Shown in pieces: positions 1,460-17,798 of a stretch of DNA of 64,000 nucleotides (the stretch's first letter is position 1; every line of letters begins with the position of its first letter). Origin of the DNA: Pseudomonadota bacterium (GTDB lineage Bacteria; Pseudomonadota; Gammaproteobacteria; Burkholderiales; JAJZUU01); assembly GCA_021848325.1 (NCBI GenBank), contig JAJZUU010000007.1:2341-66340 (forward strand), written 5' to 3'. Below the pieces are notes generated by a model. The model was not told where the DNA came from. It searched no databases and saw nothing but the letters and a program-made list of their open reading frames with translations. The translations under genes and the position numbers were made by a program.

Positions 1460-1569
1460 CGGTACGTCCCATCGAAGATCAGTTGCCGTGCCATTCCTGG
1501 ACAACGGGGCAGGGCGATTTTCCGGGCACGCTTCGCCCGGTTGACTTGATCGAACATTTTAGCAGATCA

Positions 1570-1585
1570 AGCAAGAAAGGTGCCA
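1570..1585 (-). promoter_or_regulatory. Sigma-54 (-24/-12) promoter for resB
   Basis: Minus strand reads TGGCACCTTTCTTGCT, matching TGGCAC-N5-TTGC, 110 nt upstream of the resB ATG. Confidence 0.8.
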
Positions 1586-1666
1586 TTGCATTCGGTTCCG
1601 GACATGGGTGCGCGGTCGCCGAGGAGCCCGCCACCCCGGGAGGGGACCCGGCTTCCGCGGGGTATA

Positions 1667-1686
1667 TTTTCCCATTTCCGGGAAAA
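1667..1686. promoter_or_regulatory. Palindromic operator, candidate enhancer-binding-protein site
   Basis: TTTTCCC-ATTTCC-GGGAAAA with perfect 7-bp arms, about 80-100 nt upstream of the sigma-54 site; near copy at 17799-17818. Confidence 0.6.
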
Positions 1687-1694
1687 CGGTCTTC

Positions 1695-2327
1695 CTATTT
1701 CCCGTTTTCAGGATTCTTCCCGCCGTCCTCGCGCGATCGTCTGGCCGCGCCCGCGGGTTTCTTGGCCAGGGCCGCCTGCCACTCCCAGATGGCCGCGCGC
1801 GCCTTGCGCACGAAGGGGTCGGCATTGCTGGACAAATGGACGTAGGTGCGCATCGCCCCCAGGGCCCCTTCCAGGTCCTTCAGCCCCTCCAGGGACTCCG
1901 CCAGGCCGTAGTAGGCGTTGGCCTGCATCGGGCGCAGGTTGATGGCGGTCTGGAAGAAATCGCGGGCGATGTCGTAGCGCTTCAGGCCGATCATGGCAAA
2001 ACCCATGTTCACGTTGGCCTCGGGCATGTCGGGAGCCAGTTCCAGCAGGCGGTGCAGCGCCGTCGCGGCGTCGTCGTAGCGCCCCGCGTGCAGCATTACC
2101 ACGGCCTCCTTGAAGCGCTGATCGATCTCGGCCCGCCTGGCCTGGCTGGCATGCACCTCGGGCTCCATCACCGGGTCGGCCGGGCGCGTAACGGGGCCCG
2201 CCGCCGGCGGCCCTGCGGGGCCGGCCCCGTGGCCCGGCGAGGACGCCGTCCGCAAAATGCCCGCCACGCCGCCGGCGAAAACCACCAGCGCCAGCAAGAA
2301 CAGCCGGTTGCGCCACCAACCCGTCAT
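1695..2327 (-). CDS. Membrane-anchored TPR protein, probably a cytochrome c maturation accessory
   Basis: 210 aa; N-terminal hydrophobic segment, Pro/Ala linker, TPR helices (AMIGLKRYDIARDFFQTAINLRPMQANAYYGLA); ATG overlaps ccsA stop. Confidence 0.8.
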   Translation of the reverse strand: MTGWWRNRLFLLALVVFAGGVAGILRTASSPGHGAGPAGPPAAGPVTRPADPVMEPEVHASQARRAEIDQRFKEAVVMLHAGRYDDAATALHRLLELAPDMPEANVNMGFAMIGLKRYDIARDFFQTAINLRPMQANAYYGLAESLEGLKDLEGALGAMRTYVHLSSNADPFVRKARAAIWEWQAALAKKPAGAARRSREDGGKNPENGK

Positions 2328-3148
2328 ATCATCCCCTTATGGGGCGCCATGCTCACGAACGGCACCCCGAAAAAAGTCAGAAACGCCAATACGAACACGC
2401 CCAGGATCATCAATGCGCCCAACCGGGGCGAGATCGGGTAGCTCAGACGCAGGTGCAACGCCGCCGCCAGCGCCAGCCAGGTAACGAAGGCCCAGGTTTC
2501 CAGGGGATCCCAGGCCCAGTACCGGCCCCATGCGCCCTGGGCCCATACCGCCCCCGCGATCAGCATCAGGCTCTCGAATACCAGGGCCAGGGTCATGATG
2601 CGCCACGCCAGGGCATCCAGCGACACGTCCGGCGGCATGTCGCGAAACCAGGCTGAAAGACGCGTGCGCCGCAACCACATCACCCCCGCCAAACCGACCG
2701 CCAGCAGGCAGGTGCCGAGAAATACCTTGCCCATGGCCACGTGGGCCCACAGCCAGGGCGTATCGTAGGTCGGCGGCAATGGACCGCCCGCCGGCCGCAA
2801 CACCAGCAGCCACAGCCCCAGCAGCAGAATGACCGGAAGGACCACGACGGAGGTCGGCCGCAGCACCGGCAGCCGCCAATAGGCAAAGGCATAGACCACG
2901 CCGAGGCTGAATAAGTTGCTGAGCAGTATCTCGAACATGTTGAGGAACGGGCCGTGCCCGGTGCGCGCCCAGCGCGCGGCGATGCCGACGGAGACGAGCA
3001 CCAGGGCGGTGAGCAGCATGCCCAGCACGACCTTTTCCCGCTGTTGCCCCCGGGCAACCCCTGCCACCGCGACGCCGGCCGTGACGGCATAGGCGGCGAC
3101 GGCCATCCAGATCCAGGGCAGTTCGGGCGCGCGCGCCAGGGCGTTCAT
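2324..3148 (-). CDS. ccsA: Cytochrome c biogenesis protein CcsA/ResC (heme lyase, WWD domain)
   Basis: Start MNALARAP at 3148 (ATGA overlap with upstream gene); WLWAHV, WAQGAWGRYWAWDPLETWAFVTW, ALHLR; multiple TM helices. Confidence 0.9.
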   Translation of the reverse strand: MNALARAPELPWIWMAVAAYAVTAGVAVAGVARGQQREKVVLGMLLTALVLVSVGIAARWARTGHGPFLNMFEILLSNLFSLGVVYAFAYWRLPVLRPTSVVVLPVILLLGLWLLVLRPAGGPLPPTYDTPWLWAHVAMGKVFLGTCLLAVGLAGVMWLRRTRLSAWFRDMPPDVSLDALAWRIMTLALVFESLMLIAGAVWAQGAWGRYWAWDPLETWAFVTWLALAAALHLRLSYPISPRLGALMILGVFVLAFLTFFGVPFVSMAPHKGMI

Positions 3149-4149
3149 GTGTGCAAGGCCCCATGCCCGGCGGAAAAGCCGGCAGCCCGGCCGGTCCGCT
3201 CCGGGCCCGAAGACCCGAGCCGGCGCCAAAAGTGCCAGGCCAGCCCGCCCACGCCGGCCACCGCCACGACAAACAGCCACGGCAGGGTGGGATCGTAGAA
3301 TATCTTGTACCCCATCCAGGTGCGCAACTCGTCGAAACGCAGGCTGCCGCCCTCCAGGCGCGCCGTTTGTCCCGGCTTCAGCTCGATCCGTCGCCCACCC
3401 GAGGAAACGATCAGGACGCCGCTGCTGTCCTTCCGGTCCATGGTCCAGGCGGCATCCGCTCTGAGGGGGGTCTTGAGCCGCAGCCAGAACCTGATCTCCG
3501 CCCCCCCGGGCGGAGTCCATCTGTTGTCCTGCTTCCAGTCGAACAGTGGATAAGAGGGCATGTGGATCGCTCCGGTTACCGGCTTCCCGTGTTCCGGGAT
3601 CCAGGTAAGCAGGGGCGCAAAGCCCTTGTTGGAACTGGTGTAAAACCGGTAGCCATGCAGGATGAGCGGGTGGTCGTCGCCGACCACCATCGGCACCAGA
3701 CGCCCCGCGCCATCCGGGGCCAGCACCTGGCTGCGGGTGGTGGAACGGCTCAACTCCGGGCCGTAGTCCACGGTGAAAGGGCCCTGCACGAAGAAGACCT
3801 TGGAAAATCCCATGGGGTGCAGTGGGCCCTTGGCCAGGACCTGCACGTCGCCGGGCAGAAAAGCGCTGTCCTCCGTCACCTCCACCACCCCGTCCAGGTG
3901 AACCAGCCGCCCCACCGCCGCCAGGACGACGATCCCCAGCAGCGCCAGGTGGAACACCAGCAGCCCGCCCTGGCGGTTGATGCCCGGGTTGACCGCGATG
4001 GCGGCCAGCAGATTGACCGCCAGCAGGCCCAACGGGGCCACCAGCCACCAAAGGGGGGCGGCAGGGCGGTTGTAGCTCAGCAGCACCCCCGCGCACAGCA
4101 AGGCCATCCCCACCAGGGTGAGTCGGACGGAGGACAACAAACGCAACAT
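3145..4149 (-). CDS. Short ResB/CcsB-like cytochrome c biogenesis protein
   Basis: 334 aa; N-terminal TMs, LLVFHLALL His motif, VVGDDHPLILHGYRFY (ResB NxPL-like), C-terminal YDPTLPWL TM; coupled to ccsA. Confidence 0.75.
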   Translation of the reverse strand: MLRLLSSVRLTLVGMALLCAGVLLSYNRPAAPLWWLVAPLGLLAVNLLAAIAVNPGINRQGGLLVFHLALLGIVVLAAVGRLVHLDGVVEVTEDSAFLPGDVQVLAKGPLHPMGFSKVFFVQGPFTVDYGPELSRSTTRSQVLAPDGAGRLVPMVVGDDHPLILHGYRFYTSSNKGFAPLLTWIPEHGKPVTGAIHMPSYPLFDWKQDNRWTPPGGAEIRFWLRLKTPLRADAAWTMDRKDSSGVLIVSSGGRRIELKPGQTARLEGGSLRFDELRTWMGYKIFYDPTLPWLFVVAVAGVGGLAWHFWRRLGSSGPERTGRAAGFSAGHGALHT

Positions 4150-4153
4150 CCCG

Positions 4154-6637
4154 TCATGGTACGTTATTGCAGGCCTCGGTGCCAGACCACATCCAGAATA
4201 TCCCGGTCTGGCCGTTGCCCGGCGCCCCCACCGAGCCGCAGTTGCCGGCGCTCCAGTTGCCGCTTTTGGCGAAGGTCTTCACCTTCAGCACCGCCCGGTT
4301 GTAATAGGGCGGATTGGTGTAGCCGGCGGTGGTGTTGTTGCGCACCTGGGTCCCCGCCGCCAGCCCCCCTTCCGGACCCACGTCGTTCAGGTTCACCAGG
4401 AACGCCTTGTTCTTCCAGCCGTGGGGCACCGCCACGTGGCACAGGCTGCAGCGGAAGTTGGTCACTACCGCTGCGTGGTAGACGTGCCAGTTGGTGGTCC
4501 CGGCGCCGCCACCGCCGCCGCTGCCGCTGAAGCCGCTCTTGAGCACCGTCGGCGGATTGGGGTTGCCGTACTGGTTGTAGTCGTGGCACTTGAAACACAA
4601 GTCGCCGGGCGTCCCTTCCCCCGTCCCCGTCGTCTTGTCCCCGCTCCATGGCCCCTTCAGGATGAAGTTGTTGGTCGATCCGTGCGGCCCCCATGGCTGG
4701 CCCGTGCCGGGCACCACCGTCCCCGACGCCGTGTTGGAACCATGGCAGTCGCTGCAGTACATGGTCTCGTTACCCACGTTGGCGTTCCACGGGCTCAGCC
4801 ACAGGTTCGCGCTGGCGTTGCCCCGCACCGCCGGCGTGCGCCCGGTGTTCAGCATCACCGGGTGCCACGAGCGGTGGTTGTTGGTCTGGAAGTTGACCGT
4901 GTAGCCCTGCCCCGGCGGCACCCCGGCAAACGCCCCGGAGTCGGTGGTGGTCACTTCCCCCTGGTGGCTCACCGGCGACTGGAATTCCATCGCCTGGTTG
5001 GTGAATTGCAGCAGGCCGTTGGTGCCCGAGGGCGTCCCGCCCCCGGAGGAGCCCAGCATCGGCGGGGTGGTGCCGAAGCCGTAGTCGGAGTGGCATTTGA
5101 GGCAGATCTGGTATTCCCGGGTGACGTAGGATGCGGTCACGGTGGAGTCCACGCTCCCCCCCGGGTCCCCGCGCTTGAGGGTGTAGCTGGCGGGCAACGA
5201 CCCGAAGCTGTGGGCGCTGTAGTTGGGCTCCACCCCCCAGGTGCCCCGGAGCGCCCCGGAAGCGATGTTGCTGCCCAGGATGTGGGTGGACGTGGCGTCC
5301 GGACTGGCCAGGTTGCCGTAGAACACCTGGTTGCGGATGATCCGGTGCGGGTTGTGGCAGTCGGTGCATTCGGCGTGCCGGTTGGTGAGGTTGCCGAATC
5401 CCAGCAGGCTCCTCGATTCGATGAAGTCCGAGCCTTCATTGGTCGGGGCGTCGGCGTTGTAGGTCCCGATGTCATGCACCTCCATCCCCGCCGGCTGGTC
5501 GGTGCTGGTGATGGGCATGTGCCGCGGCAGGCTGAAGTCGTCCTGGATGTCGGCCACGTTGGTGGTGGGGGTGACGATGCTCTGGGCGCTGTTGGTGTGG
5601 CACTGGTAGCAGGTCTGCTCGATCGCCGAGTTGCCGCCGCTCTTGGGCACGGCGGTGCTGTCTGTGCCTTCCCGCAACAGGCGCCGCGCCCCTTGCACGG
5701 TGTGGGGGTCGTGGCAGTTCAGGCACGCCGCCTGCCAGACCTGGGTGCCGCTGGGGAATTCCCGCTGGGCGGCGGCGCTGGCGGTATAGGTCTCGTTGGC
5801 CACCAGCGGGTTGGCGTGGGCGGAGTAGGCCCAGGTCGGCCCCGCCTTGTCGTGACAGGCCAGGCAGATGGTGTCGCTGTTCGGGTTGAATGCGCCGCCG
5901 GTGGGCGCCGCCGCCTGCAGCCGGTTGGCCCGCAGGAATTTGATGTCCCCCAGGGTGGGGTCGGTGTCCCGAATGTGGGGGTCGTGGCAGGTGGTGCACT
6001 CCAGCTTGCCCGCTTCCAGCGGCAGCAGGGGTTTCGTTAGCGAGCCGGGCACCCGCGTGCCCACCGTGGTGCCGTCCGGCGCCCACAGCTCGCCGTCCTT
6101 GGACGCCAGGGTGCTGTCGTAGGTGAACGAGATGGGGTGGTCGTTGGTGAGGTTGACCCCGAGGTCGCGGGTGTAGCCGGTCAGCGCCCCGGCCCCGGTG
6201 GGCATGGTGCCCCCCACCCCGGTGCCGTTCATGGCTATGCTGGCCGGGCTCTGCCCGTTCAGCACGTCCACCGTGCCCAGCGCCATGGTGCCGTCGTGGC
6301 ACGACAGGCACAGCTTGGAATAACCGTCCGGCGCGGCTGCCAGCTCGGCGGGATTGGCGACCATGGAGCTGGAAAGGTACGGCGTGTAGGTGGACCCGGC
6401 CAGCTTGCGGTTCCACAGCGGCGCCTGGATCGGCTCCGCGCCGTGCGGCGTGTGGCAGAATACGCATATCTGCGATTCGCTCACCGCCGTCACGCTGCCC
6501 GTCCCGCTCACCGACAGGTTGTGCTTGGTGTTGCGGATGTCCGCAATCCGCGTCGCCAGCGCCAGCTCCGTCCCCGCCCACAGCAATCCAAGGCCCAGGC
6601 CCGCCGCAATAAACCAGGGGCCAGTTCTTCTGCGCAT
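4154..6637 (-). CDS. Undecaheme c-type cytochrome, copy 1
   Basis: 11 CxxCH (CVFCH, CLSCH, CTTCH, CLACH, CLNCH, CYQCH, CTDCH, CLKCH, CSDCH, CFKCH, CSLCH); signal peptide MRRRTGPWFIAAGL...ALA; start 6637 chosen by homology with copy 2 (track start 6664). Confidence 0.92.
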   Translation of the reverse strand: MRRRTGPWFIAAGLGLGLLWAGTELALATRIADIRNTKHNLSVSGTGSVTAVSESQICVFCHTPHGAEPIQAPLWNRKLAGSTYTPYLSSSMVANPAELAAAPDGYSKLCLSCHDGTMALGTVDVLNGQSPASIAMNGTGVGGTMPTGAGALTGYTRDLGVNLTNDHPISFTYDSTLASKDGELWAPDGTTVGTRVPGSLTKPLLPLEAGKLECTTCHDPHIRDTDPTLGDIKFLRANRLQAAAPTGGAFNPNSDTICLACHDKAGPTWAYSAHANPLVANETYTASAAAQREFPSGTQVWQAACLNCHDPHTVQGARRLLREGTDSTAVPKSGGNSAIEQTCYQCHTNSAQSIVTPTTNVADIQDDFSLPRHMPITSTDQPAGMEVHDIGTYNADAPTNEGSDFIESRSLLGFGNLTNRHAECTDCHNPHRIIRNQVFYGNLASPDATSTHILGSNIASGALRGTWGVEPNYSAHSFGSLPASYTLKRGDPGGSVDSTVTASYVTREYQICLKCHSDYGFGTTPPMLGSSGGGTPSGTNGLLQFTNQAMEFQSPVSHQGEVTTTDSGAFAGVPPGQGYTVNFQTNNHRSWHPVMLNTGRTPAVRGNASANLWLSPWNANVGNETMYCSDCHGSNTASGTVVPGTGQPWGPHGSTNNFILKGPWSGDKTTGTGEGTPGDLCFKCHDYNQYGNPNPPTVLKSGFSGSGGGGGAGTTNWHVYHAAVVTNFRCSLCHVAVPHGWKNKAFLVNLNDVGPEGGLAAGTQVRNNTTAGYTNPPYYNRAVLKVKTFAKSGNWSAGNCGSVGAPGNGQTGIFWMWSGTEACNNVP

Positions 6638-6638
6638 G
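4200..6638. repeat. 2.44-kb direct repeat unit A (pairs with 6873-9311)
   Basis: Offset 2673; shadow-frame translations identical in both copies; differences found at 4278-4279 vs 6951-6952 and 6622 vs 9295. Confidence 0.95.
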
Positions 6639-6814
6639 TGTCGCCCCGCTCCGAAATCTGGCATGCCAATCCGGCTTCGCCGGTCGGCCCACCCGTTATC
6701 TTAGCGTAACGGCACCGGGTCGGAAAACTTTAGCGACTTTGGGGCAAGGGAAAACCAAAAAGCGCCGGGCAGGACCCGCTGCAACCCGCCCGGCGCCTTC
6801 CACGGCGACTGCCG

Positions 6815-9310
6815 TCACGGCACGTTGTTGCAGGCCTCGCTGCCGCCGCCCATCATGCCGACCATCCAGGCAATCCCGGTCTGGCCGTTGCCCGGCGCCC
6901 CCACCGAGCCGCAGTTGCCGGCGCTCCAGTTGCCGCTTTTGGCGAAGGTCACCACCTTCAGCACCGCCCGGTTGTAATAGGGCGGATTGGTGTAGCCGGC
7001 GGTGGTGTTGTTGCGCACCTGGGTCCCCGCCGCCAGCCCCCCTTCCGGACCCACGTCGTTCAGGTTCACCAGGAACGCCTTGTTCTTCCAGCCGTGGGGC
7101 ACCGCCACGTGGCACAGGCTGCAGCGGAAGTTGGTCACTACCGCTGCGTGGTAGACGTGCCAGTTGGTGGTCCCGGCGCCGCCACCGCCGCCGCTGCCGC
7201 TGAAGCCGCTCTTGAGCACCGTCGGCGGATTGGGGTTGCCGTACTGGTTGTAGTCGTGGCACTTGAAACACAAGTCGCCGGGCGTCCCTTCCCCCGTCCC
7301 CGTCGTCTTGTCCCCGCTCCATGGCCCCTTCAGGATGAAGTTGTTGGTCGATCCGTGCGGCCCCCATGGCTGGCCCGTGCCGGGCACCACCGTCCCCGAC
7401 GCCGTGTTGGAACCATGGCAGTCGCTGCAGTACATGGTCTCGTTACCCACGTTGGCGTTCCACGGGCTCAGCCACAGGTTCGCGCTGGCGTTGCCCCGCA
7501 CCGCCGGCGTGCGCCCGGTGTTCAGCATCACCGGGTGCCACGAGCGGTGGTTGTTGGTCTGGAAGTTGACCGTGTAGCCCTGCCCCGGCGGCACCCCGGC
7601 AAACGCCCCGGAGTCGGTGGTGGTCACTTCCCCCTGGTGGCTCACCGGCGACTGGAATTCCATCGCCTGGTTGGTGAATTGCAGCAGGCCGTTGGTGCCC
7701 GAGGGCGTCCCGCCCCCGGAGGAGCCCAGCATCGGCGGGGTGGTGCCGAAGCCGTAGTCGGAGTGGCATTTGAGGCAGATCTGGTATTCCCGGGTGACGT
7801 AGGATGCGGTCACGGTGGAGTCCACGCTCCCCCCCGGGTCCCCGCGCTTGAGGGTGTAGCTGGCGGGCAACGACCCGAAGCTGTGGGCGCTGTAGTTGGG
7901 CTCCACCCCCCAGGTGCCCCGGAGCGCCCCGGAAGCGATGTTGCTGCCCAGGATGTGGGTGGACGTGGCGTCCGGACTGGCCAGGTTGCCGTAGAACACC
8001 TGGTTGCGGATGATCCGGTGCGGGTTGTGGCAGTCGGTGCATTCGGCGTGCCGGTTGGTGAGGTTGCCGAATCCCAGCAGGCTCCTCGATTCGATGAAGT
8101 CCGAGCCTTCATTGGTCGGGGCGTCGGCGTTGTAGGTCCCGATGTCATGCACCTCCATCCCCGCCGGCTGGTCGGTGCTGGTGATGGGCATGTGCCGCGG
8201 CAGGCTGAAGTCGTCCTGGATGTCGGCCACGTTGGTGGTGGGGGTGACGATGCTCTGGGCGCTGTTGGTGTGGCACTGGTAGCAGGTCTGCTCGATCGCC
8301 GAGTTGCCGCCGCTCTTGGGCACGGCGGTGCTGTCTGTGCCTTCCCGCAACAGGCGCCGCGCCCCTTGCACGGTGTGGGGGTCGTGGCAGTTCAGGCACG
8401 CCGCCTGCCAGACCTGGGTGCCGCTGGGGAATTCCCGCTGGGCGGCGGCGCTGGCGGTATAGGTCTCGTTGGCCACCAGCGGGTTGGCGTGGGCGGAGTA
8501 GGCCCAGGTCGGCCCCGCCTTGTCGTGACAGGCCAGGCAGATGGTGTCGCTGTTCGGGTTGAATGCGCCGCCGGTGGGCGCCGCCGCCTGCAGCCGGTTG
8601 GCCCGCAGGAATTTGATGTCCCCCAGGGTGGGGTCGGTGTCCCGAATGTGGGGGTCGTGGCAGGTGGTGCACTCCAGCTTGCCCGCTTCCAGCGGCAGCA
8701 GGGGTTTCGTTAGCGAGCCGGGCACCCGCGTGCCCACCGTGGTGCCGTCCGGCGCCCACAGCTCGCCGTCCTTGGACGCCAGGGTGCTGTCGTAGGTGAA
8801 CGAGATGGGGTGGTCGTTGGTGAGGTTGACCCCGAGGTCGCGGGTGTAGCCGGTCAGCGCCCCGGCCCCGGTGGGCATGGTGCCCCCCACCCCGGTGCCG
8901 TTCATGGCTATGCTGGCCGGGCTCTGCCCGTTCAGCACGTCCACCGTGCCCAGCGCCATGGTGCCGTCGTGGCACGACAGGCACAGCTTGGAATAACCGT
9001 CCGGCGCGGCTGCCAGCTCGGCGGGATTGGCGACCATGGAGCTGGAAAGGTACGGCGTGTAGGTGGACCCGGCCAGCTTGCGGTTCCACAGCGGCGCCTG
9101 GATCGGCTCCGCGCCGTGCGGCGTGTGGCAGAATACGCATATCTGCGATTCGCTCACCGCCGTCACGCTGCCCGTCCCGCTCACCGACAGGTTGTGCTTG
9201 GTGTTGCGGATGTCCGCAATCCGCGTCGCCAGCGCCAGCTCCGTCCCCGCCCACAGCAATCCAAGGCCCAGGCCCGCCGCAATAAACCAGGGGCTAGTTC
9301 TTCTGCGCAT
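6815..9310 (-). CDS. Undecaheme c-type cytochrome, copy 2
   Basis: 831 aa, same 11 CxxCH; C-terminus GIAWMVGMMGGGSEACNNVP vs GIFWMWSGTEACNNVP in copy 1; start overlaps the 3' end of the upstream NHL gene. Confidence 0.92.
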   Translation of the reverse strand: MRRRTSPWFIAAGLGLGLLWAGTELALATRIADIRNTKHNLSVSGTGSVTAVSESQICVFCHTPHGAEPIQAPLWNRKLAGSTYTPYLSSSMVANPAELAAAPDGYSKLCLSCHDGTMALGTVDVLNGQSPASIAMNGTGVGGTMPTGAGALTGYTRDLGVNLTNDHPISFTYDSTLASKDGELWAPDGTTVGTRVPGSLTKPLLPLEAGKLECTTCHDPHIRDTDPTLGDIKFLRANRLQAAAPTGGAFNPNSDTICLACHDKAGPTWAYSAHANPLVANETYTASAAAQREFPSGTQVWQAACLNCHDPHTVQGARRLLREGTDSTAVPKSGGNSAIEQTCYQCHTNSAQSIVTPTTNVADIQDDFSLPRHMPITSTDQPAGMEVHDIGTYNADAPTNEGSDFIESRSLLGFGNLTNRHAECTDCHNPHRIIRNQVFYGNLASPDATSTHILGSNIASGALRGTWGVEPNYSAHSFGSLPASYTLKRGDPGGSVDSTVTASYVTREYQICLKCHSDYGFGTTPPMLGSSGGGTPSGTNGLLQFTNQAMEFQSPVSHQGEVTTTDSGAFAGVPPGQGYTVNFQTNNHRSWHPVMLNTGRTPAVRGNASANLWLSPWNANVGNETMYCSDCHGSNTASGTVVPGTGQPWGPHGSTNNFILKGPWSGDKTTGTGEGTPGDLCFKCHDYNQYGNPNPPTVLKSGFSGSGGGGGAGTTNWHVYHAAVVTNFRCSLCHVAVPHGWKNKAFLVNLNDVGPEGGLAAGTQVRNNTTAGYTNPPYYNRAVLKVVTFAKSGNWSAGNCGSVGAPGNGQTGIAWMVGMMGGGSEACNNVP

Positions 9311-9311
9311 G
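6873..9311. repeat. 2.44-kb direct repeat unit B (pairs with 4200-6638)
   Basis: See unit A. Confidence 0.95.
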
Positions 9312-10385
9312 CTTCATACCCGTCAAGTACTGGAAGATGACCACCCTTCCGTTGAACATGTCCGCCACATAGATCCGGTTATGCGGATCAGTCCACGCAC
9401 CGGCGGGCAGATAAAATTCGCCGATCTTCTTGCCGGTGCCGCCGATGGGCATCAGGAACCTCCCGTCCCGGTTGAAGACCAGCAGGTAGTCGTGCATGGA
9501 CTCGACCACGTATACATTGTTATCGCTATCCACCGCGACGCCTTTTGGGCGCACCATGTTCCCCACGTACAGGCCGCGCTCGCCGAACTGCCGCAAAAAA
9601 CCGCCGTGCTCGTCCAGCACCTGAACCCTGGAATTGAGCGTGTCGGCGACATAGAGCTCGCCGTCCGCCAAGGCCAGGTGAGTGGGGAAATTGAATTCAC
9701 CCGGGCCCGTGCCGCGCCGGCCGATCACATCCAGCAGCTTGCCGGCGTCGTCGAACACCTTGATATCATGGGCATAGGTGTCCACCACGAACACCCGCCC
9801 CCGTTTCCCATCGCGGGCAAGCCCGGTGGGCCATTTCAGTATCCCCTTGCCGAAGCTGCCTACCGGATTGCCCGCCGAATCCAGCCGAATCACTTCCCCC
9901 AGCTTGGCATCCGCCACCAGGATCTGGCCGTTGGGGCCCGGGGCGATGCCCACGGGGGACTCGAAGCGCACGTTTTCCTTCGCCTGGTCCCACACATCCA
10001 GCTTCCCGGCAACGCCATCGAACACGAATACCGCGCGGCGGCTGGCGTCCGTAACAAGGATCCTGCCCTGCCCGTCCACCATGCCGGATACGGGGCGCTG
10101 CAGCACCACGGGCTCCCGGTTGCCGGCGGTGAGGCCCACCAGCCAGTACAGGAATTTCACGCCGGCGCTGCGCTGCTGCTCGTTCTCGTCGTGGAAGTTG
10201 TTCTCGCCGGTCAGTTCGCCCACATATGCGTAGCGGGGCGTCTCCGGCGGCTGGGGCCACACCTTCCTGACCTGGCCGGCGGAGCCATCCGGGTCGAGAC
10301 GCATCACGTAGTGCGTGTCGGCGCATCCGGAAAGCAGCAAGAAACATGCCACCAGCCAGCCCAATCGGAGATATCGATGGTTCAA
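9294..10385 (-). CDS. NHL-repeat beta-propeller lipoprotein
   Basis: Lipobox LLSGC; NHL repeats (RPVSGMVD, SPVGIA, WPTGLA, GTGPGEFNFPTHLA, VRPKGVAVD, FYLPAGAW). Confidence 0.88.
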   Translation of the reverse strand: MNHRYLRLGWLVACFLLLSGCADTHYVMRLDPDGSAGQVRKVWPQPPETPRYAYVGELTGENNFHDENEQQRSAGVKFLYWLVGLTAGNREPVVLQRPVSGMVDGQGRILVTDASRRAVFVFDGVAGKLDVWDQAKENVRFESPVGIAPGPNGQILVADAKLGEVIRLDSAGNPVGSFGKGILKWPTGLARDGKRGRVFVVDTYAHDIKVFDDAGKLLDVIGRRGTGPGEFNFPTHLALADGELYVADTLNSRVQVLDEHGGFLRQFGERGLYVGNMVRPKGVAVDSDNNVYVVESMHDYLLVFNRDGRFLMPIGGTGKKIGEFYLPAGAWTDPHNRIYVADMFNGRVVIFQYLTGMKHAQKN

Positions 10386-10386
10386 G

Positions 10387-11418
10387 CTACTTCTCCCCTT
10401 TTGTCGGCTGAGGCGTGATGAGCAGCATCCCGATGCGCCCGTTCAGGCTATCCGCGACATACAGCACGTTCGCATCGATCCACAAGCCCGCAATATGGTT
10501 GAAATGGGAGGGGCCCGCCCCGCTGCCGCCGTACTGGGCCAACAGCCGGCCATCCGGGGAAAAGACCTTTATGGTGTCGTCGTAGTTGTCGCCCACATAA
10601 ACCCGCCGGAAGCGATCCACGGCGATCGCGCCGGGATCCGTCAGGTCGTCTTCCCCCAGAACCCGGCAGGCGGCGCTGCGTCTCTGCTGCACCACGACCC
10701 GCTTGGCGATGCGATCCACCAGGTAGATCTCGTCGCGGGTGAGCGCCATGGCGGTCATGCTGTCCATCCCCACGGCCTTCGCGCCGCAAGGACGGATGAC
10801 GGAAACCGCCGCGCCCAGGGGATTGAACCCGACCACTTGATGGTACAGCCCATCGGCCACCAGCACCTCTCCCGTCGCCTCGTCCACGGCGAAGGCGGTG
10901 GGGCGTCCCAGGTTGGCATCGTCGCTGAACGTGTTTATCAGCATGCCGTTCCAATCGTAATGGGCGATCCGTCGCGCCGCCGGCTCCGACAGGTATACGG
11001 TCATGTCCGGCGCCGCATAGATCTCCCAGTCGGCGCCGGGGGCGAGCTGGGTGTAGGCGGTGAGCCGCCGGGTGGTTCGATCATAGCGGTAGATGCGCCT
11101 GGCGCCGGTATCCACCACATAGACGAAATTGCCCCGGGCGGCCACCGAGGTCGGCCGCACAAAGGTGACGTAGCGGGGGGACGTCTGGCCGAAATCGGAG
11201 GTGAGCAGCCCGCCGCTGATATCCCCCCACGACTCCAGCAGGGACGTTCCATCGGTGCCACGCCTGTCCGCGACGGCTCCGGCCGGGGCGGCGCACCCGG
11301 CCAGCACGCCGCACAGCGCCAGAAGCGCCCACAGGATGACCGGGGAACGGCGCCGGATCTGCCGTATCAGCCGGGTGCCCCCAACCGGCCGGGCAAAGAC
11401 TGGCGCTCCCTCGATCAT
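10387..11418 (-). CDS. NHL-repeat beta-propeller lipoprotein
   Basis: Lipobox VLAGC; repeats RPTSVAA, RPTAFAVD, DPGAIAVD, GAGPSHFNHIAGL; start near 11418/11421 behind AGGAG. Confidence 0.8.
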   Translation of the reverse strand: MIEGAPVFARPVGGTRLIRQIRRRSPVILWALLALCGVLAGCAAPAGAVADRRGTDGTSLLESWGDISGGLLTSDFGQTSPRYVTFVRPTSVAARGNFVYVVDTGARRIYRYDRTTRRLTAYTQLAPGADWEIYAAPDMTVYLSEPAARRIAHYDWNGMLINTFSDDANLGRPTAFAVDEATGEVLVADGLYHQVVGFNPLGAAVSVIRPCGAKAVGMDSMTAMALTRDEIYLVDRIAKRVVVQQRRSAACRVLGEDDLTDPGAIAVDRFRRVYVGDNYDDTIKVFSPDGRLLAQYGGSGAGPSHFNHIAGLWIDANVLYVADSLNGRIGMLLITPQPTKGEK

Positions 11419-11428
11419 CACTCCGCTC

Positions 11429-11833
11429 CTAGAAAATTCCGGGGCCCTGGCTCGTGCCACCGCTCATTATCCCGGTGCTCAAACCGGGCTTTCCGGAATG
11501 ACACAGGCCGCAATGTTCCACCGACCAGGCGATCTTGCCGTTGTGGCACGCCCCGCAAAACTTGCCGTTGATGATGTCCGCCATGTCCATGTCATCTGCG
11601 CCCGCCTGCAGCTTGAACCCGAGTTCGGTATGGCACACCTTGCAGCGGAAGCGCTCGCGGTGAAACCAGTGGGGGAAGATTACCGGCCGCATGCCGTTTT
11701 TTTGCGACCAGTTGTTGAGCACCACATCCCCGTATTCCGCCCGCACCGCGGCGCCCGGCAGCAGCGCCAACAATACCGCGAGCAGGGCCAGCCAGCGCTT
11801 GCCGCGGGCGGGTGGCCGGAGGGACGGTTTCAT
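11429..11833 (-). CDS. Periplasmic c7-type triheme cytochrome c
   Basis: Signal peptide; VIFPHWFH, CKVCH, CGACH, CGLCH; RBS AAGGAAAGG. Confidence 0.9.
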   Translation of the reverse strand: MKPSLRPPARGKRWLALLAVLLALLPGAAVRAEYGDVVLNNWSQKNGMRPVIFPHWFHRERFRCKVCHTELGFKLQAGADDMDMADIINGKFCGACHNGKIAWSVEHCGLCHSGKPGLSTGIMSGGTSQGPGIF

Positions 11834-11847
11834 GGCGCACCTTTCCT

Positions 11848-12411
11848 TCATTTTGGAATCACGCTGTGACAGCGGTTGCATTCGCTCAGGGGAAAGGCCA
11901 CGGTACCATGGCACTTGCCGCAATACTGGCCATTGAGAATGGCCAGCATGGTCAGCCCGGGGGTGGGGCCCTCCTTGAACATGGAGTCGTGGCAGGTGGT
12001 ACAGTCCAGCCAGGCCGTGTGGGGCCTGTGGGGAAACCGCACCCAGGGCGTACCGCCGGTATTTTTCATGATCGTGTCCTGGTCCAGCGTCCTGACCCGG
12101 GTCTGCGGCTGCAGTTTGCTGCGCGGATCGATGTACCCTTCGTTCAGCGCCTGGTCCCAGTTCACCTTGTTGCCGACGTAATCCTGGGGCAGCTTGGACA
12201 GGGAGTCGCCCGGTTCCTGCAACAATGAAATATCCGGATTGGCAGGGTCGTGCAAGCCGTCGCTGATGAGCGCCGCCCAGACGTTCTTTACCGGGGCCAC
12301 GACCGTCCCGCCCCACGCCACACCCGCGCCGATGACCGAAGCCGCGACCAGCAAGGCCGCCCATCTGCCGACACGGCGGTTCCGCAACAAACACACAATA
12401 TCGCTACCCAT
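11848..12411 (-). CDS. Periplasmic c7-type triheme cytochrome c
   Basis: Signal peptide; VRFPHRPH, CTTCH, CGKCH, CNRCH; start MGSDIV chosen over track start 12489. Confidence 0.88.
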   Translation of the reverse strand: MGSDIVCLLRNRRVGRWAALLVAASVIGAGVAWGGTVVAPVKNVWAALISDGLHDPANPDISLLQEPGDSLSKLPQDYVGNKVNWDQALNEGYIDPRSKLQPQTRVRTLDQDTIMKNTGGTPWVRFPHRPHTAWLDCTTCHDSMFKEGPTPGLTMLAILNGQYCGKCHGTVAFPLSECNRCHSVIPK

Positions 12412-12575
12412 CACTGCTTTTGTCTTCCGTCTAAAGATCATCTCTGCCAAGTGCGTCGCCTGGGCGGCCTGCGCACACCCCATACCCATCCCGATATCCC
12501 ATTTTATCGCCTAAACGGCCCGGCCGCCAAAGCCGTCCGCGATTTTGCGGTCCTCCGTCCGGCCGGGAACAAATT

Positions 12576-13325
12576 TTATCGATACACCTTCCACACGCGT
12601 TTCCGCGCGCGGATCATCTCTTCGATGATCTGGTCGGACTTGGGCCGGGTATGGCAGCGGGCACACTCGGTGGGCGGAAACGCCACCGAGCCGTGGCACA
12701 CGCCGCACTTCTGGCCACGCATGATTCCTTCCATGGTGATCCGGTTGGCGCCCTTCTGAGGGACGAAGATGCCGGCATGGCAATTGGCGCAGGCCAGCCA
12801 GCGGGTATGGGCCCCATGGGAGAAGATCACGTCCGGGGTACTCCCTTTCACCTTGAATTCGATATTGAGATCAAACACCGGGGGAGCCGTACCCGCCTTG
12901 TCCAATTCCCAGCGGGGCTTGATTTTGCCCTGGGCCAGCACCTTCATCCAGTCTACCCCATTCCCTGCCCGGTACGGGTCCTTCGGCCAAGGGGAGAATA
13001 CCTCCGACGGCCGTTGCAGCAGGTGCAACTGGTCGTCCGCCGGATCGTGGATGCCGTCCGTGGCGGGCGGCAAGTTGAGCGGCGGCGCCGGCTTCAACAG
13101 GCGATTCATCGGGACCGGGCCGCTGGGCGGGGGCACCTCCGGCGGCGCCATAAAGGCAGGTTTCCCCATCTCGCTGCCCGCCGCGCGCGCCACGGCATCA
13201 TCGGGACTGCGAGGCACGTACCTAACCGGGGGCTCCACGCTGCACCCCACTATCAGCGTCCCAAGGGCCACCGTCGCCAGCCCGCCGAGGAGTCCCAGCC
13301 GCTTAATGTCGACCAGCATATTCAT
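12576..13325 (-). CDS. c7-type triheme cytochrome c lipoprotein
   Basis: Lipobox LIVGC, Pro-rich linker, VIFSHGAH, CANCH, CGVCH, CARCH. Confidence 0.88.
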   Translation of the reverse strand: MNMLVDIKRLGLLGGLATVALGTLIVGCSVEPPVRYVPRSPDDAVARAAGSEMGKPAFMAPPEVPPPSGPVPMNRLLKPAPPLNLPPATDGIHDPADDQLHLLQRPSEVFSPWPKDPYRAGNGVDWMKVLAQGKIKPRWELDKAGTAPPVFDLNIEFKVKGSTPDVIFSHGAHTRWLACANCHAGIFVPQKGANRITMEGIMRGQKCGVCHGSVAFPPTECARCHTRPKSDQIIEEMIRARKRVWKVYR

Positions 13326-13409
13326 AGATCTTCTCAAGAACTCCAGTTCCCAAAATTTCCGGCCCCGGTCCGGTCGGCGCCTCCTCCGTCCGGATACCGT
13401 TGACGGCGC

Positions 13410-15464
13410 CTACATATCGCCGAAGTTCCTGATCGCGTTGAACATGATGGAGGTATGGGTCTGGTTGCCGAATTGGCCCACCCGCGCGATCAGTCCGAGT
13501 TGGGTGCGTCCGATGGAGTAATTCAGACGATTTTCCCAGGAACGGGTTTCGTACTCCTGCGGTCCGCTCAGGACGGGGAGCGCCACCTGTCCGTAGAGGG
13601 TGAGTTGAGACATGAACTGCAGGCGCGGCACACCGAAGGCGCGCTGGTGCCGGTAGGTCAAGTCCCCGCTGGAAGAGGTGGTGAACTGGCTAATAGGCTG
13701 GTCGATGGTGCTCTGACGCGAGGACTGGATAGTCAGGTCCCCGCTCAAGGAGGAGTAGCGATTGAGCAGGGTATTCACCGTCGCCTGAAAATTGATCATT
13801 TGCATGGCGTCCCGGCCGTCATTGAGGGAGCGCGAATCGGTTGCGCTCAAGCGCAGCAGGGTCGAGGTCTTGTCCGCCCCCTTGTTCCAGGTCAGGGACG
13901 CGGTATCGGACAGGCGCCGCGTGGAGGCCACGGCGGTATCCAGGTCGCTGGAAATGCTCTGGCTCAGGTTCATCGCCAACCTGGCGCCCGGGCCGGTCTC
14001 GATGCTGCGGCTCAGGCCGTGGCCCGCCGCCAGGGACAGGTGCCGCCCCGCGGCCAATCCGGTGCGGTTGCTGGCCGTACCCGAGCCGAACCAATAGTAC
14101 TGATACTTGCCGAAATTGAGCGTGTCGGACTGGTAAGTGGCGCCCAGTGACTGATTGGTGCTGGTCGAGGTAGTGCCGCCGCTGGCGGTTTGAGTCAGGT
14201 TGGCAGTGGCATTGAGGCTGACGTTCCTGTTCAGCCGATAGATCGCGCCGCCATTGAGGTTGGCGGAGCGCAAGCTGGTAGGCCCGGTGTCGAGGGCGTA
14301 CAGGCGCACCCCCCCGTTCACGGTCAGGGGGCTCCGTTCCGGGCGCCAGAAGGCGTAGCTGTTCAACTGCAGGAACCGGGTATTGGTGCCTGTGGTGGCG
14401 AGGTTGTAGCGATTGTCGTTGAGGGTGGCCTGGGAATCCACCGAAAACTCCTGGTTCGGCGTGTAGTTGTGGCGAACGTCCAGGGTATTGAGCAGCGCAG
14501 TCTCGCCGGTATCGAGACGCTCGTTCTTGTTGGTGGTACCGCTGACATCCACACTCTGTTTCCCGAAACGGGTCGACGCGCCAAACTGCAGCCCATTCTG
14601 CTGGTAGTCCCCGACGGTTCCGGATTCCCCGGTCTGACTGCTCTGGTCGAAGGCCAGCCGGTAGCGGGTATTCCCCTGCAGCGTCTGGTAGGTCTGACTG
14701 AAGCCGAGGCGCTTGTAGCGGTAGGCCGCCCCGATGGTCCCCGCCAAGCCCGTATCCATCCGGCTGTCCGTGACGTCGTAGTGCGCCTCGAAGGGAAAAC
14801 GGCTTTCCGGCAGCAGCGCCAGGCTGGCGTTTCCGGTGAGGTCGCGGGAACTGCCACCCTGTGTCCCGCTCGTCCAATCCTGGGAGATCCCGATCCCGCC
14901 GCTGACCAAGGCAAACCAGGGGCGCCAGATAAAGCTGCTGCCGTTGAGGGTGGCCGTAAGGAGCTGGTCCCGCGTTTTTTGCGTCCCGATGTCCTCGCTC
15001 CGAAAGGTGTAGCCCACTGAGCCCCAGGTGCGGATGGGAGAGAGGCGCCAGGGGACGAGGCCCTTGATCTTCTCGAAGAGGCCCTTGCTCTTCCCGGGAC
15101 CCGACCCCTCTTCCCCGGTCCCTGACCCCACGTCCCCATTACCCGGCGCCGGGGACTCGACACCTGCGCCGTTCGCGGCGGCGGGGTACGCCGGGCCGGG
15201 GATCCCACCCTCCCCCGGGGGCTGTTGCTCCGCCAAGGTATCCGTCAGGGTCAGATGCAGTGCGTCGCCGGTGGCCGGCTCCGGCTCGGGGGATGACTCA
15301 GACTGCTCGGTTCGCGCTTCCAGGTCCCGGGACAACGCAAGACGCAACGCGTCCCCGGTCACGGGAAACGCCGCCGGCAACGCGCAACGGGGCCAGGCGA
15401 ACGTCAGCCACGCAGCCATCAGGACATATGCCGAGCCCCCGCCTGTGGCGCGCCGTTCACCCAC
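13410..15464 (-). CDS. Predicted outer-membrane beta-barrel (porin/channel)
   Basis: 684 aa, signal-like N-terminus, Ser/Thr/Gln/Asn-rich alternating beta-strand pattern, aromatic residue near C-terminus (SIMFNAIRNFGDM), no heme motif; start uncertain. Confidence 0.7.
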   Translation of the reverse strand: MGERRATGGGSAYVLMAAWLTFAWPRCALPAAFPVTGDALRLALSRDLEARTEQSESSPEPEPATGDALHLTLTDTLAEQQPPGEGGIPGPAYPAAANGAGVESPAPGNGDVGSGTGEEGSGPGKSKGLFEKIKGLVPWRLSPIRTWGSVGYTFRSEDIGTQKTRDQLLTATLNGSSFIWRPWFALVSGGIGISQDWTSGTQGGSSRDLTGNASLALLPESRFPFEAHYDVTDSRMDTGLAGTIGAAYRYKRLGFSQTYQTLQGNTRYRLAFDQSSQTGESGTVGDYQQNGLQFGASTRFGKQSVDVSGTTNKNERLDTGETALLNTLDVRHNYTPNQEFSVDSQATLNDNRYNLATTGTNTRFLQLNSYAFWRPERSPLTVNGGVRLYALDTGPTSLRSANLNGGAIYRLNRNVSLNATANLTQTASGGTTSTSTNQSLGATYQSDTLNFGKYQYYWFGSGTASNRTGLAAGRHLSLAAGHGLSRSIETGPGARLAMNLSQSISSDLDTAVASTRRLSDTASLTWNKGADKTSTLLRLSATDSRSLNDGRDAMQMINFQATVNTLLNRYSSLSGDLTIQSSRQSTIDQPISQFTTSSSGDLTYRHQRAFGVPRLQFMSQLTLYGQVALPVLSGPQEYETRSWENRLNYSIGRTQLGLIARVGQFGNQTHTSIMFNAIRNFGDM

Positions 15465-15493
15465 GCCACCCCTCGCGCCCCTGCCTCGCCCCG

Positions 15494-16522
15494 CTATTTG
15501 GCATCCGTGTCATGCCCTCCTCCGGCAAGCGGTCGATAGAACGAGGTGTCCATCAGGATCGGCGTCTGCTTCCTCAATTTGGCGATCAGGCCCTTCCAGG
15601 CCAGGTCGCTTTGCTCCCTGCGCCACAGGTCGCGCGCCCGTTTCCGGCTCTCAGCAAAGCTGTCCAACCGCGCGGGCCGGCGCTGTTCCAGGCGGAAAAT
15701 CGCCACCCCTTCCAGCAGGCCCACGGGAGGCGAAATCTCGCCCGGCTTGAGTTTGGCGATGGCGCTCTCGGCCAGTCTGCCCAGCATGCCCTGGTGCAGG
15801 TAGCCCATGTCGCCGCCCTGGGCGGCGGTGGAGTCCCCGGAATGGGCCTTCGCCTCGGCGGCGAAATCCGCGCCCTTGCGCAGGCGCTTGATGATCTCCT
15901 CCGCCTCTTTGGTGGCCTTCTCCCGGGCCGAGTTGGGGGCCGAGGGGTCGACCTTGAGCAGGATCAGCGACACCCTCACCTGCTCGGGTTCCGTGAACAG
16001 TTTGGGGTGGCTGAGATAATAGGCTTTCAACTGCTTTTCGCTCGGTTCCGGGACGTTTCGCACCTGCCGCTCGACCTGCTCCAGCAAGCTCTTCTTCTCC
16101 ATGTCCGCGGTGAGTTCCGGAAGAAAGCGAGCCCGGTTCTGGCGCCACTTCTCGTTGCCGGCGTAGCGCTTGTCAAACGCCGCCACGTCCTTCTTGACCT
16201 GGGTCTCGTCCGGCTTCAGCCCGCGCCTCTTGGCCTCCTGCAGCAGGAGCGCATTGTTTACCAGTTGCTCCCCCACCTTCCGCTGCAGGGCCGCCAGCTT
16301 GTCCGCGCCCGGATTGGGGTGATAGAAGGTGTTGCGGACCGCCACCAGAAAGGCGTCGTCGTAATTCTTCCGGGTGATGACGGTATCGCCGACCCGCGCG
16401 AAAATCGCCTCCTTGCCCGCCGGCGGCTCCGCGGTGGCGGCGAAACCCTGCCCCGCCAGCAAGATGCCGCCCAGGACGGCCCAGCAAACCCGCTTGGCAG
16501 CGCCACTCATTGCCCCGGTCAT
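15494..16522 (-). CDS. PpiC/SurA-type peptidyl-prolyl isomerase (periplasmic foldase)
   Basis: EQVRVSLILLK, GADFAAEAKAHSGDS..QGGDMG, LKPGEISPPV parvulin motifs; GGAG RBS before ATG 16522. Confidence 0.88.
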   Translation of the reverse strand: MTGAMSGAAKRVCWAVLGGILLAGQGFAATAEPPAGKEAIFARVGDTVITRKNYDDAFLVAVRNTFYHPNPGADKLAALQRKVGEQLVNNALLLQEAKRRGLKPDETQVKKDVAAFDKRYAGNEKWRQNRARFLPELTADMEKKSLLEQVERQVRNVPEPSEKQLKAYYLSHPKLFTEPEQVRVSLILLKVDPSAPNSAREKATKEAEEIIKRLRKGADFAAEAKAHSGDSTAAQGGDMGYLHQGMLGRLAESAIAKLKPGEISPPVGLLEGVAIFRLEQRRPARLDSFAESRKRARDLWRREQSDLAWKGLIAKLRKQTPILMDTSFYRPLAGGGHDTDAK

Positions 16523-16708
16523 TTTCACTCCATTCCATCCACTGTTGTTCGAGATCCTTCGCATCAGGCGTCCATACTAGCCGGATGCATCCGAATCGGC
16601 AACACGACGACGGGCCAGGCGCGTGCTCCGCCTGGCCCGTCGTCCGCCTGGGCGCCGCGGCTCGGCGGCCTGAAACCCGCCCGCCGCGCGCCGCTCACCC
16701 CGCCGCGC

Positions 16709-17587
16709 TTACTTGATGTGGCAAGACAGGCACAAGGCACTGCCCGTATTGGCCACGCGCAGGAAGGTGGTATTGGTGGAGTGTGGATCGTGGCAGCTCG
16801 CGCATTCCACGAACGGCTCGACCGTGCCGGTGGTGGTGTTGGTACGGGTATACAGACTGATGTCCGTCTTCTCCCGCGTTGCGGCCGTTCCCACGCTGGT
16901 ATCCACCCACCACACCTGCTGTCCGTTAACGGTGCCCACGTTCAGAGCCCCATTCGCGGCATACGTCTTGCCATGGAAGTCGCCCGGCAGATTGATGTCC
17001 CCGCCCGCCGCGAGACCGCCGCCGTACTCGATACCCACCGGGTGGTCGTTCCGCAGGTCGACGCCGATGTTGGTGATGATGCCGGAGGCAAGCGTGCCGG
17101 TTGCGGTGTTCACGTCCGCTCCGGTCATGGTGCCGAAGGTCGCGCCGGCCGGGTTATAGCCGCCCGAGCCGGGGGCGTTGATCATCACGTTCAGCGCCAT
17201 GGTGCCGTCGTGGCAGGACAGACAGGCCAGGGACACCGACCCCACCGGGAGCACCGTTCCCTTCAGGGTGCTGGTGCCCAGCTTGTCGTAGGTGGTGTAG
17301 GTGGTCGGGTTGTTCGTGACCTTGTTCCACAGCGGCGCCTGGGCCGATATGTTGGCCCCGTGGGGCGTATGGCAGAACACGCAGATCTCGGTGGTGGTCA
17401 CCGCGCCGGCAGGGTCGAGATGCGCAGCTCCGGTGCCGGTGACGCTCAGGTTGTGCTTGGTGTCTGCAATCGACAGCGCCAGCGCGCTCGGGGAGAAGGC
17501 GCCCGCGACCAGCAACGCGGCCCCTCCCGCCATCAACGCTCCGCCGACCGCCCGCGTAATCGCTTTCTTGGTGAATGGTGTTTTCAT
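16709..17587 (-). CDS. Secreted tetraheme cytochrome c, OmcE-like
   Basis: Signal peptide ending ALA; TKHNLS, EICVFCHTPH, PLWN, SLACLSCHDG, DLRNDHPV, ECASCHDPH, FLR..NTGSALCLSCHIK; strong RBS AGGAAGGA. Confidence 0.9.
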   Translation of the reverse strand: MKTPFTKKAITRAVGGALMAGGAALLVAGAFSPSALALSIADTKHNLSVTGTGAAHLDPAGAVTTTEICVFCHTPHGANISAQAPLWNKVTNNPTTYTTYDKLGTSTLKGTVLPVGSVSLACLSCHDGTMALNVMINAPGSGGYNPAGATFGTMTGADVNTATGTLASGIITNIGVDLRNDHPVGIEYGGGLAAGGDINLPGDFHGKTYAANGALNVGTVNGQQVWWVDTSVGTAATREKTDISLYTRTNTTTGTVEPFVECASCHDPHSTNTTFLRVANTGSALCLSCHIK

Positions 17588-17721
17588 GGCTATCCTTCCT
17601 TTCTCTTGTAGGCCCTTCAGTAGAATCAAGCTGCAAGTCCGAACCATCCTTGCTTGCGTCCCGGACGCATCGGTGTTCGATGATGCCCCCCGAATGCCCG
17701 CTTACTTCCCACCTTACCCTA

Positions 17722-17737: not shown

Positions 17738-17798
17738 GAGGTACAATCTACTGGTGTTTCAACTGCCTTGCCGCCCTTTCCGGGTTCTTGCGGGAGGA

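Follow-up and report, generated by a model that had tools for sequence, protein, structure and literature searches.

An OmcE-like four-heme head in the undecaheme cytochrome UetJ suggests a candidate end-piece for a UetA filament

The DNA analyzed here, a stretch of 64,000 nt from contig JAJZUU010000007.1 of a Burkholderiales genome (hereafter, the window), carries a cytochrome gene cluster at positions 1–19000 that is co-oriented on the minus strand. One gene of the cluster (4154–6637) encodes an undecaheme c-type cytochrome, which is an ortholog of UetJ, also described as OccP; it was matched to Tenderia UetJ and to OccP of 'Ca. Dechloromonas occultata' by gene order, heme count, and description. 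We found that the first four hemes of UetJ lie in a head that is homologous to the entire tetraheme cytochrome UetA encoded in the same cluster (16709–17587), and to OmcE, a proven filament subunit. The UetJ tail starts exactly where the chains of UetA and OmcE stop and carries seven further hemes. A tentative reading of this arrangement, which is compatible with the sequence and which we regard as possible, is that UetJ is the end-piece (tip or anchor) of a filament built from UetA.

The tetraheme and the undecaheme share 36% identity over 286 alignment columns in BLASTP (E 2e-30). The alignment extends from just past the signal peptide to the last residue of the tetraheme (residues 35–292) and covers residues 26–264 of the undecaheme. 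A preliminary description of this DNA had claimed that hemes 1–4 of an 11-heme protein repeat the tetraheme motifs in order; every motif that it listed is indeed found in order, including the collinear non-heme motifs PLWN, NDHP, and FLR common to both proteins, and the eleven CxxCH motifs were confirmed by count, with seven of them behind the head. The positions that it assigned to this module, 6000–6637, were too narrow, as they cover only the signal peptide and hemes 1–2, and the head reaches ~5846. In the two family alignments, UetA and the UetJ head have the same residue, with a conservation of 80% or more, in 59 columns, and 21 columns are family-specific; outside the head, the similarity of the two proteins is only at the motif level. 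Both proteins also match the solved OmcE chains of G. sulfurreducens (7TFS) and D. soudanensis (9YUQ), with E-values of 7e-30 (2e-32 with a family profile) and 4.5e-18 for the undecaheme head, and 5.5e-24 and 4e-27 for the tetraheme. A chance or compositional resemblance caused by the many CxxCH motifs has a negligible probability and is ruled out by the E-value of the alignment over the full tetraheme, the collinear motifs, the matches to 7TFS and 9YUQ, and the 59 shared columns.

In a tree of the UetJ heads, the UetA proteins, and the two solved OmcE chains, a branch with a support of 99 in the Shimodaira–Hasegawa-like approximate likelihood ratio test separates the UetJ heads from UetA and OmcE. 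Since the UetJ heads form their own clade, the head is an old, specialized, and long-maintained paralog and not a copy of the neighboring gene. The preliminary description had spoken of a full copy, which is right in that the homology spans the whole tetraheme, but the relationship is that of an ancient paralog instead of a duplicate. It had also pointed to similarity at the DNA level. A 20-mer is shared by both genes (at 6282, 8955, and 17196) and appears in none of the shuffles; its reverse complement encodes the peptide C-H-D-G-T-M-A. The blastn comparison of uetA and uetJ returned only short motif blocks, namely one of 65 nt (78%), one of 33 nt (94%), and a pair of 17-mers. Because the matches are limited to such motif-coding stretches, the DNA likeness is a by-product of conserved peptides and a GC-rich genome and does not reflect recombination, and the tree and blastn together rule out a recent duplication of, or gene conversion between, uetA and uetJ.

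We counted conservation in 121 UetJ homologs and 120 UetA homologs, and loops and motifs in 208 sequences. UetA contains exactly eight invariant histidines for its four hemes, and its chain ends two residues past the heme-4 motif in 120/120 homologs, as do both solved OmcE chains. The corresponding eight head ligands of UetJ (His39, His62, His65, His114, His167, His218, His221, and His262) are all invariant in the UetJ homologs. However, the free C-terminus right behind the last heme motif, a trait of the OmcE-type subunit, is absent from UetJ. The UetJ chain runs 563 residues past heme 4; therefore, UetJ is not classed as an OmcE-type subunit, only as a protein with an OmcE-like head.

The eleven CxxCH motifs of the UetJ encoded at 4154–6637 (copy A) begin at residues 58, 110, 214, 258, 305, 343, 424, 512, 628, 681, and 730. 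Eleven such motifs are present in both copies of the gene in the window and in 120 of the 121 homologs. The heme-5 motif of the tail is CLNCHDPH (residues 305–312), which carries His312. Both His312 and His274, the latter in a W-A-x-S-A-H-A-N-P segment, are invariant, and the SAHA motif is located 10–14 residues past heme 4 in 205/208 sequences. The tail as a whole has 12 invariant non-motif histidines for seven hemes, and searches of PDB sequences revealed no solved homolog of it. Weak similarity to MtrC/MtrF domain II/IV was found in Pfam (38.9 bits), but MtrC and UndA chains are absent among the PDB sequence matches of UetJ with E up to 10. The chain closes with a heme-free domain in which the Cys800/Cys823 pair, noted in the preliminary description, is invariant and, judging from the sequence, probably forms a disulfide bond. 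The poly-Gly hinge reported alongside it is present locally, although a run of at least five glycines occurs in only 11 of the homologs. In addition, Met374 (window position ~5516–5518) is present in all homologs and Met816 (~4190–4192) in 99% of them, beside at least five surplus invariant histidines. Some UetJ hemes may thus be His/Met-ligated, with a higher potential, or these residues may bind metal.

In OmcE and OmcS filaments, one heme per subunit is ligated by a neighboring subunit's histidine (PMC13712944, PMC12203936). The texts disagree on how the two proteins correspond: the OmcE heme motifs and distal histidines superimpose on OmcS hemes 1–4 in one paper (eLife, PMC9473688), and a review maps the OmcE hemes onto OmcS hemes 3–6 (PMC12203936); this conflict bears on any docking model of an end-piece. 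The same review names OmcE heme 2 as the acceptor that is ligated in trans. Residue 16 of OmcS is the second histidine of C-E-G-C-H-T-M-H, a CxxCHxxH segment after heme 1. Wang et al. are said to have identified in 2019 this His16 as the inter-subunit donor, to heme 5. By analogy with OmcS, the donor in UetA and UetJ is more likely the histidine of C-H-T-P-H (His65 in UetJ), and the acceptor would be heme 3 of the preceding unit. The histidine of the N-terminal T-K-H had been considered as the swapped one; this assignment was withdrawn because the position of OmcS His16 makes the C-H-T-P-H histidine the likelier donor. With heme 2 or heme 3 as the acceptor alike, the donor and the acceptor lie across the heme-1/heme-4 junction.

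UetJ relatives are present in at least 590 species genomes, as scanned with one genome per species, and 80 loci were retrieved for locus analysis. The titles among these loci are all from Pseudomonadota, including Magnetococcales. Homologs at 51–66% identity include those of Gallionella, Thiohalomonadales, Rhodocyclaceae, and Ideonella genomes, and the cultured carriers include Ramlibacter alkalitolerans, Ramlibacter sp. AN1133, and Noviherbaspirillum denitrificans. The OmcE-like head is fused directly to the tail in all 86 UetJ copies of the 80 loci. Wherever a locus leaves room upstream of uetB, uetA is found there (28/28), and the five apparent exceptions all encode uetA elsewhere in the genome. 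The uet gene order is the same in 43/80 loci, which are long enough to show it, and the barrel, the trihemes, and UetJ are conserved together across the loci. The distribution is patchy: only 2 of the 31 genomes of the window's own order carry UetJ, and close homologs occur across Beta-, Gamma-, and Alphaproteobacteria as well as Magnetococcales, which suggests horizontal mobility of the cluster. In the locus of Noviherbaspirillum denitrificans TSA40, an open reading frame with 24 CxxCH motifs (L044:104-3340) lies upstream of the NHL genes and uetJ and replaces the usual uetA–uetC block. It contains repeated T-K-H-N-like motifs; its classification as another OmcE-headed protein was rejected, as no OmcE-type head is present at its N-terminus.

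The window contains two tandem copies of uetJ. The blocks 4190–6638 and 6863–9311 (2449 bp) are 99.76% identical with six mismatches and sharp borders, and the copies differ from each other over their final ~12 codons and in the sequence upstream of the start codon; the start of copy A was set at 6637 because the identity with copy B stops at 6638. This pattern looks like the result of gene conversion that spared the C-terminal loop or of a recent duplication, although an assembly artefact may also account for it. The C-terminal domain is the only region of substantial difference between copies A and B, mainly in the loop between the two cysteines (4169–4240 and 6830–6913), which is enriched in Gly and Met in copy B (WMVGMMGGGSEAC). 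Two uetJ copies also occur in 6/80 other loci (L041, L051, L053, L068, L070, and L078). In every such pair, the loop of one paralog is enriched in Met or in Gly and Met, as in WMNGGGMGGMGGGGGGSEAC, and that of the other is plain. The enriched loops of five pairs contain expanded W-M-x-G-G-M-G-G-M runs, and that of L053 is short and rich in Met; the plain loops of five pairs have a length of 22 residues and a single Met, and that of L053 is shorter. The 22-residue plain loop with one Met is found in 146/208 sequences overall, and the split into enriched and plain loops holds for pairs whose identity ranges from 58% to 99%. Such Met-rich loops are a typical feature of proteins that bind Cu(I) or soft metals. 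The UetJ paralogs thus vary at the far C-terminal end and keep the head constant, as expected of an adaptor carrying a functional module, and this pattern is also compatible with a stand-alone protein.

Since UetA ends two residues past heme 4 in every homolog, the UetJ tail sits on what would be the subunit–subunit face. Because chain connectivity places the tail at the heme-4 side, where the next subunit of a filament would be, UetJ is neither internal nor branching, and only its heme-1 side could contact UetA. The preliminary description had proposed that the module lets the undecaheme join the filament as a tip, a branch, or a base adaptor. The homology, specifically to a proven filament subunit, and the compatibility of the sequence with an adaptor role speak for this proposal, but a branch or a mid-filament place is excluded by the chain topology. 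In our reading of UetJ as an end-piece, UetA would polymerize like OmcE, with one heme per subunit receiving its sixth ligand from a histidine of the neighbor. The UetJ head, which retains all its ligands, would dock with its free heme-1 face on the heme-4 end of the UetA filament. Its own heme-4 face would be permanently taken by the covalent tail, and the open heme there would be closed in cis by a tail histidine, for which His312 in the CxxCHxPH of heme 5 would be the positional analog of the donor from the next subunit, and His274 an alternative. There would be one UetJ per filament, stopping growth at that end and adding eleven hemes to the chain, with the C-terminal domain facing outward (tip) or toward the UetC barrel and the periplasm (anchor or root). 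The end-piece reading would account for several features at once: the head ligands are strictly retained, the tail is fused at a precise point, UetA is an obligatory companion, and the distal end varies.

An alternative that we hold to be about equally plausible is that UetJ works on its own, as an outer-membrane or extracellular cytochrome within a porin–cytochrome complex, located in or on the UetC barrel and passing electrons between the periplasmic trihemes and the outside. In that case, all head histidines would act in cis, and the likeness to OmcE would be due to common descent only. The papers on Tenderiales, Gallionellaceae, and 'Ca. Dechloromonas occultata' propose such a role; it accounts just as well for the conservation of the barrel and the trihemes and does not depend on a filament that is unproven. 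The surplus invariant histidines of the tail suffice for every heme without a partner, and OmcE-like tetrahemes are widespread and do not all polymerize (PMC13712944). UetJ is also reported to be highly expressed, which agrees with a stand-alone protein and would be unusual for a component present once per filament. However, a stand-alone UetJ leaves unexplained the unchanged OmcE ligands and the N-terminal T-K-H-N-L-S in at least 200 sequences, as well as the constant companion, an OmcE-type subunit with a strictly conserved free C-terminus. Furthermore, with ~75 residues per heme, UetJ is much bulkier than decahemes that thread a barrel, such as MtrA.

It is rather improbable that UetJ itself polymerizes head to tail, giving a nanowire with eleven hemes per subunit through a histidine swap of the same kind, and that UetA forms a filament of its own. 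The head keeps its donor-side features, the motif order leaves the last unit without a fourth heme and hence with room for an unsatisfied heme, and the Tenderiales preprint raises polymers of UetJ or UetA as a possibility (10.1101/2022.05.06.490989). Against such a homopolymer, proven filament subunits end 2–3 residues past the last heme motif, whereas heme 11 of UetJ is followed by an 82-residue heme-free domain, predicted to be disulfide-bonded, whose key residues are invariant, and the C-terminal loop of UetJ differs from one paralog to the other, as one would not expect of an interface in a polymer.

Several observations weigh against UetJ as an end-piece. UetA filaments lack direct support in any Pseudomonadota, as does contact between UetA and UetJ, and some OmcE homologs, as mentioned above, do not polymerize. 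The swapped histidine and heme of OmcE are unsettled in the texts consulted, with heme 2 named in PMC12203936 and heme 3 indicated by the OmcS analogy. Histidine counting is indecisive: a tally of nine histidines for four hemes was tried as decisive proof of a terminator and rejected, as the 12 invariant tail histidines are all spare-capable for the seven tail hemes, and His274 or His312 may simply serve hemes of the tail. Profile–profile alignment detected no unit-level repeat of the OmcE head in the tail. A 4+4+3 repeat of OmcE units was rejected accordingly, with only a paired-CxxCH likeness between hemes 5/6 and 3/4 (E 1.9e-5, probability 54%); the order of histidine and CxxCH features in hemes 5–8 mirrors that of the head as a pattern, for which homology is not demonstrated. 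The AlphaFold2 models of UetJ are too poor to inspect. The mean predicted local distance difference test score (pLDDT) was 44.5 for full-length UetJ modeled with 52 homologs, which is unusable, and 57.6 for head residues 28–280 modeled with 135 UetJ and UetA sequences. Foldseek with this mediocre head model returned 7TFS as the sole PDB match, at a low TM-score of 0.40/0.48; the match supports an OmcE-type fold of the head but is of no use for ligand geometry.

The gene order of the window, as derived from Pfam annotation of the neighbors, equals the uetABCDEFGHIJ-ccsAB-nrfG order published for 'Ca. Tenderia electrophaga' and Tenderiales (Figure 2 legend, bioRxiv 10.1101/2022.05.06.490989), and a TPR gene follows the ccsB/resB-like gene and ccsA in the minus-strand order (Table 1). 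The cluster has also been published as occA-S in 'Ca. Dechloromonas occultata', with OccP as the undecaheme (bioRxiv 10.1101/695007), and was later noted in Gallionella (PMC10734462) and in Leptothrix-group genomes (PMC13386937). Pfam gave no match for UetC (684 aa). Nanowire loci are recognized in PMC13712944 by nearby genes for a large β-barrel and for β-propeller lipoproteins; a putative barrel gene (uetC) and propeller genes (9294–11460 and 17870–19018) are both found near uetA in the window. Behind uetA stands a hairpin, and of 30 other loci, about half likewise have a long hairpin, unrelated in sequence, after uetA. The hairpin is possibly an attenuator or an mRNA 3' stabilizer that raises the uetA transcript level, and its presence here and in many other loci would fit UetA as an abundantly expressed subunit.

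Table 1. Features of the cytochrome cluster in the window and domains of UetJ copy A.
Feature	Position	Strand	Remarks
NHL propeller	17870-19018	-	Pfam annotation
uetA, OmcE-family tetraheme, candidate filament subunit	16709..17587	-	8 invariant His; chain end 2 residues past heme-4 motif
Hairpin, 16-bp perfect, GC-rich	16606..16644	-	65 nt 3' of uetA stop codon; z -3.2
uetB, SurA-like peptidyl-prolyl isomerase	15494..16564	-	Pfam annotation
uetC, 684 aa, heme-free	13410..15464	-	Occupies the place of the uet cluster's predicted outer-membrane β-barrel (10.1101/2022.05.06.490989)
Three cytochrome-c7-type triheme genes	12576-13337, 11848-12489, 11429-11863 (span 11429..13337)	-	Pfam annotation
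Two NHL β-propeller genes, uetH and uetI positions	10387-11460, 9294-10385 (span 9294..11460)	-	Pfam annotation
uetJ copy B, undecaheme, 831 aa	6815..9310	-	Head ~8519-9226
uetJ/occP copy A, undecaheme c-type cytochrome, 827 aa	4154..6637	-	
Copy A: signal peptide, Sec-type, residues 1-28 (MRRRTGPWFIAAGLGLGLLWAGTELALA)	6554..6637	-	By eye; cleavage after ALA judged from sequence
Copy A: OmcE/UetA-like four-heme head, residues 29-264	5846..6553	-	CxxCH 58, 110, 214, 258; distal His 39, 65, 167, 221
Copy A: seven-heme tail, residues 265-745	4403..5845	-	Begins right behind heme-4 motif
Copy A: heme-free C-terminal domain, residues 746-827 and stop codon	4154..4402	-	Cys800/Cys823 around W-M loop
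ccsB/resB-like gene and ccsA, heme-attachment genes	3145-4149, ~2327-3148 (span 2327..4149)	-	Directly downstream of uetJ; Pfam annotation

Comparisons with described systems place UetJ in a known family. Tenderia UetJ likewise has eleven CxxCH motifs, a signal peptide, ~800–900 aa, and the same gene order, and is predicted to be extracellular; compared with the Tenderiales uet cluster, the window lacks the cupredoxin gene uetF among the trihemes and has tandem uetJ copies. OccP (10.1101/695007) is a betaproteobacterial extracellular undecaheme, which was detected in the metaproteome and is encoded in a cytochrome-rich cluster with 6-NHL proteins. Compared by description, it differs in being given as 922 aa and in being proposed as a terminal Mn(III) reductase, not as a filament component. 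OmcE shares with the UetJ head four heme motifs, four distal histidines, and several non-heme motifs, but OmcE homopolymerizes, as UetA would, and UetJ, extended beyond heme 4, cannot use that face alike. The terminators and tips of chaperone–usher pili (PapH-type proteins and tip adhesins) offer a functional analogy, in that a protein paralogous to the major subunit and sharing its operon keeps the joining element, accepts no further subunit, and carries an extra functional domain. The fold and the chemistry are unrelated, however, with donor-strand exchange in the pili and heme–histidine ligation proposed for UetJ, which is known here from its sequence. UndA and MtrC of Shewanella resemble UetJ in their extracellular location, their role at the cell–mineral interface, and, for UndA, eleven hemes, but they differ in head fold and gene context, and no PDB sequence match to either was obtained.

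The gene family and the cluster are thus already named and are biochemically uncharacterized, and the end-piece hypothesis is so far unpublished. Neither OmcE nor a UetA-like head in UetJ is ever mentioned in the Uet-named papers examined and the occ preprint (10.1101/695007), and an end-piece role for UetJ is absent from the uet/occ and OmcE literature searched. A 2026 study of D. soudanensis OmcE (PMC13712944) calls for a terminator or tip that resembles OmcE and states that OmcE operons encode none; UetJ as an end-piece has the properties that its Discussion sets out for such a part. How cytochrome nanowires start, stop, and are anchored and wired to the cell is the open question that this candidate addresses. 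An OmcE-headed protein beside an OmcE-type subunit, in so many species and in cultured isolates, makes the question testable outside Geobacter. If UetJ is an end-piece, 'Uet', which is now drawn as a porin–cytochrome complex in the genomics of iron oxidizers and electroautotrophs, would be recast as a nanowire system; if this role is refuted, UetJ is an ordinary member of a known, uncharacterized family. We consider unlikely a more specific model, in which UetA repeats in a heteropolymeric OmcE-type nanowire and UetJ is both a PapH-like terminator and the electrical root. Here, the head would be bonded to the last UetA by heme–histidine ligation, the cis-closed heme would stop growth, and the seven-heme tail (~6–7 nm) would thread the UetC barrel to the periplasmic trihemes. 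If this model is true, UetJ would be the first component to be identified for the start, stop, and anchoring of any cytochrome nanowire.

The same genome contains a second OmcE-like gene, away from the uet cluster. It is located on the minus strand of another contig (C44:1479-2435, locus L086), encodes five CxxCH motifs, and adjoins a gene for an NHL β-propeller lipoprotein (2597–3703); its product resembles the '5-heme OmcE-like' proteins of PMC13712944.

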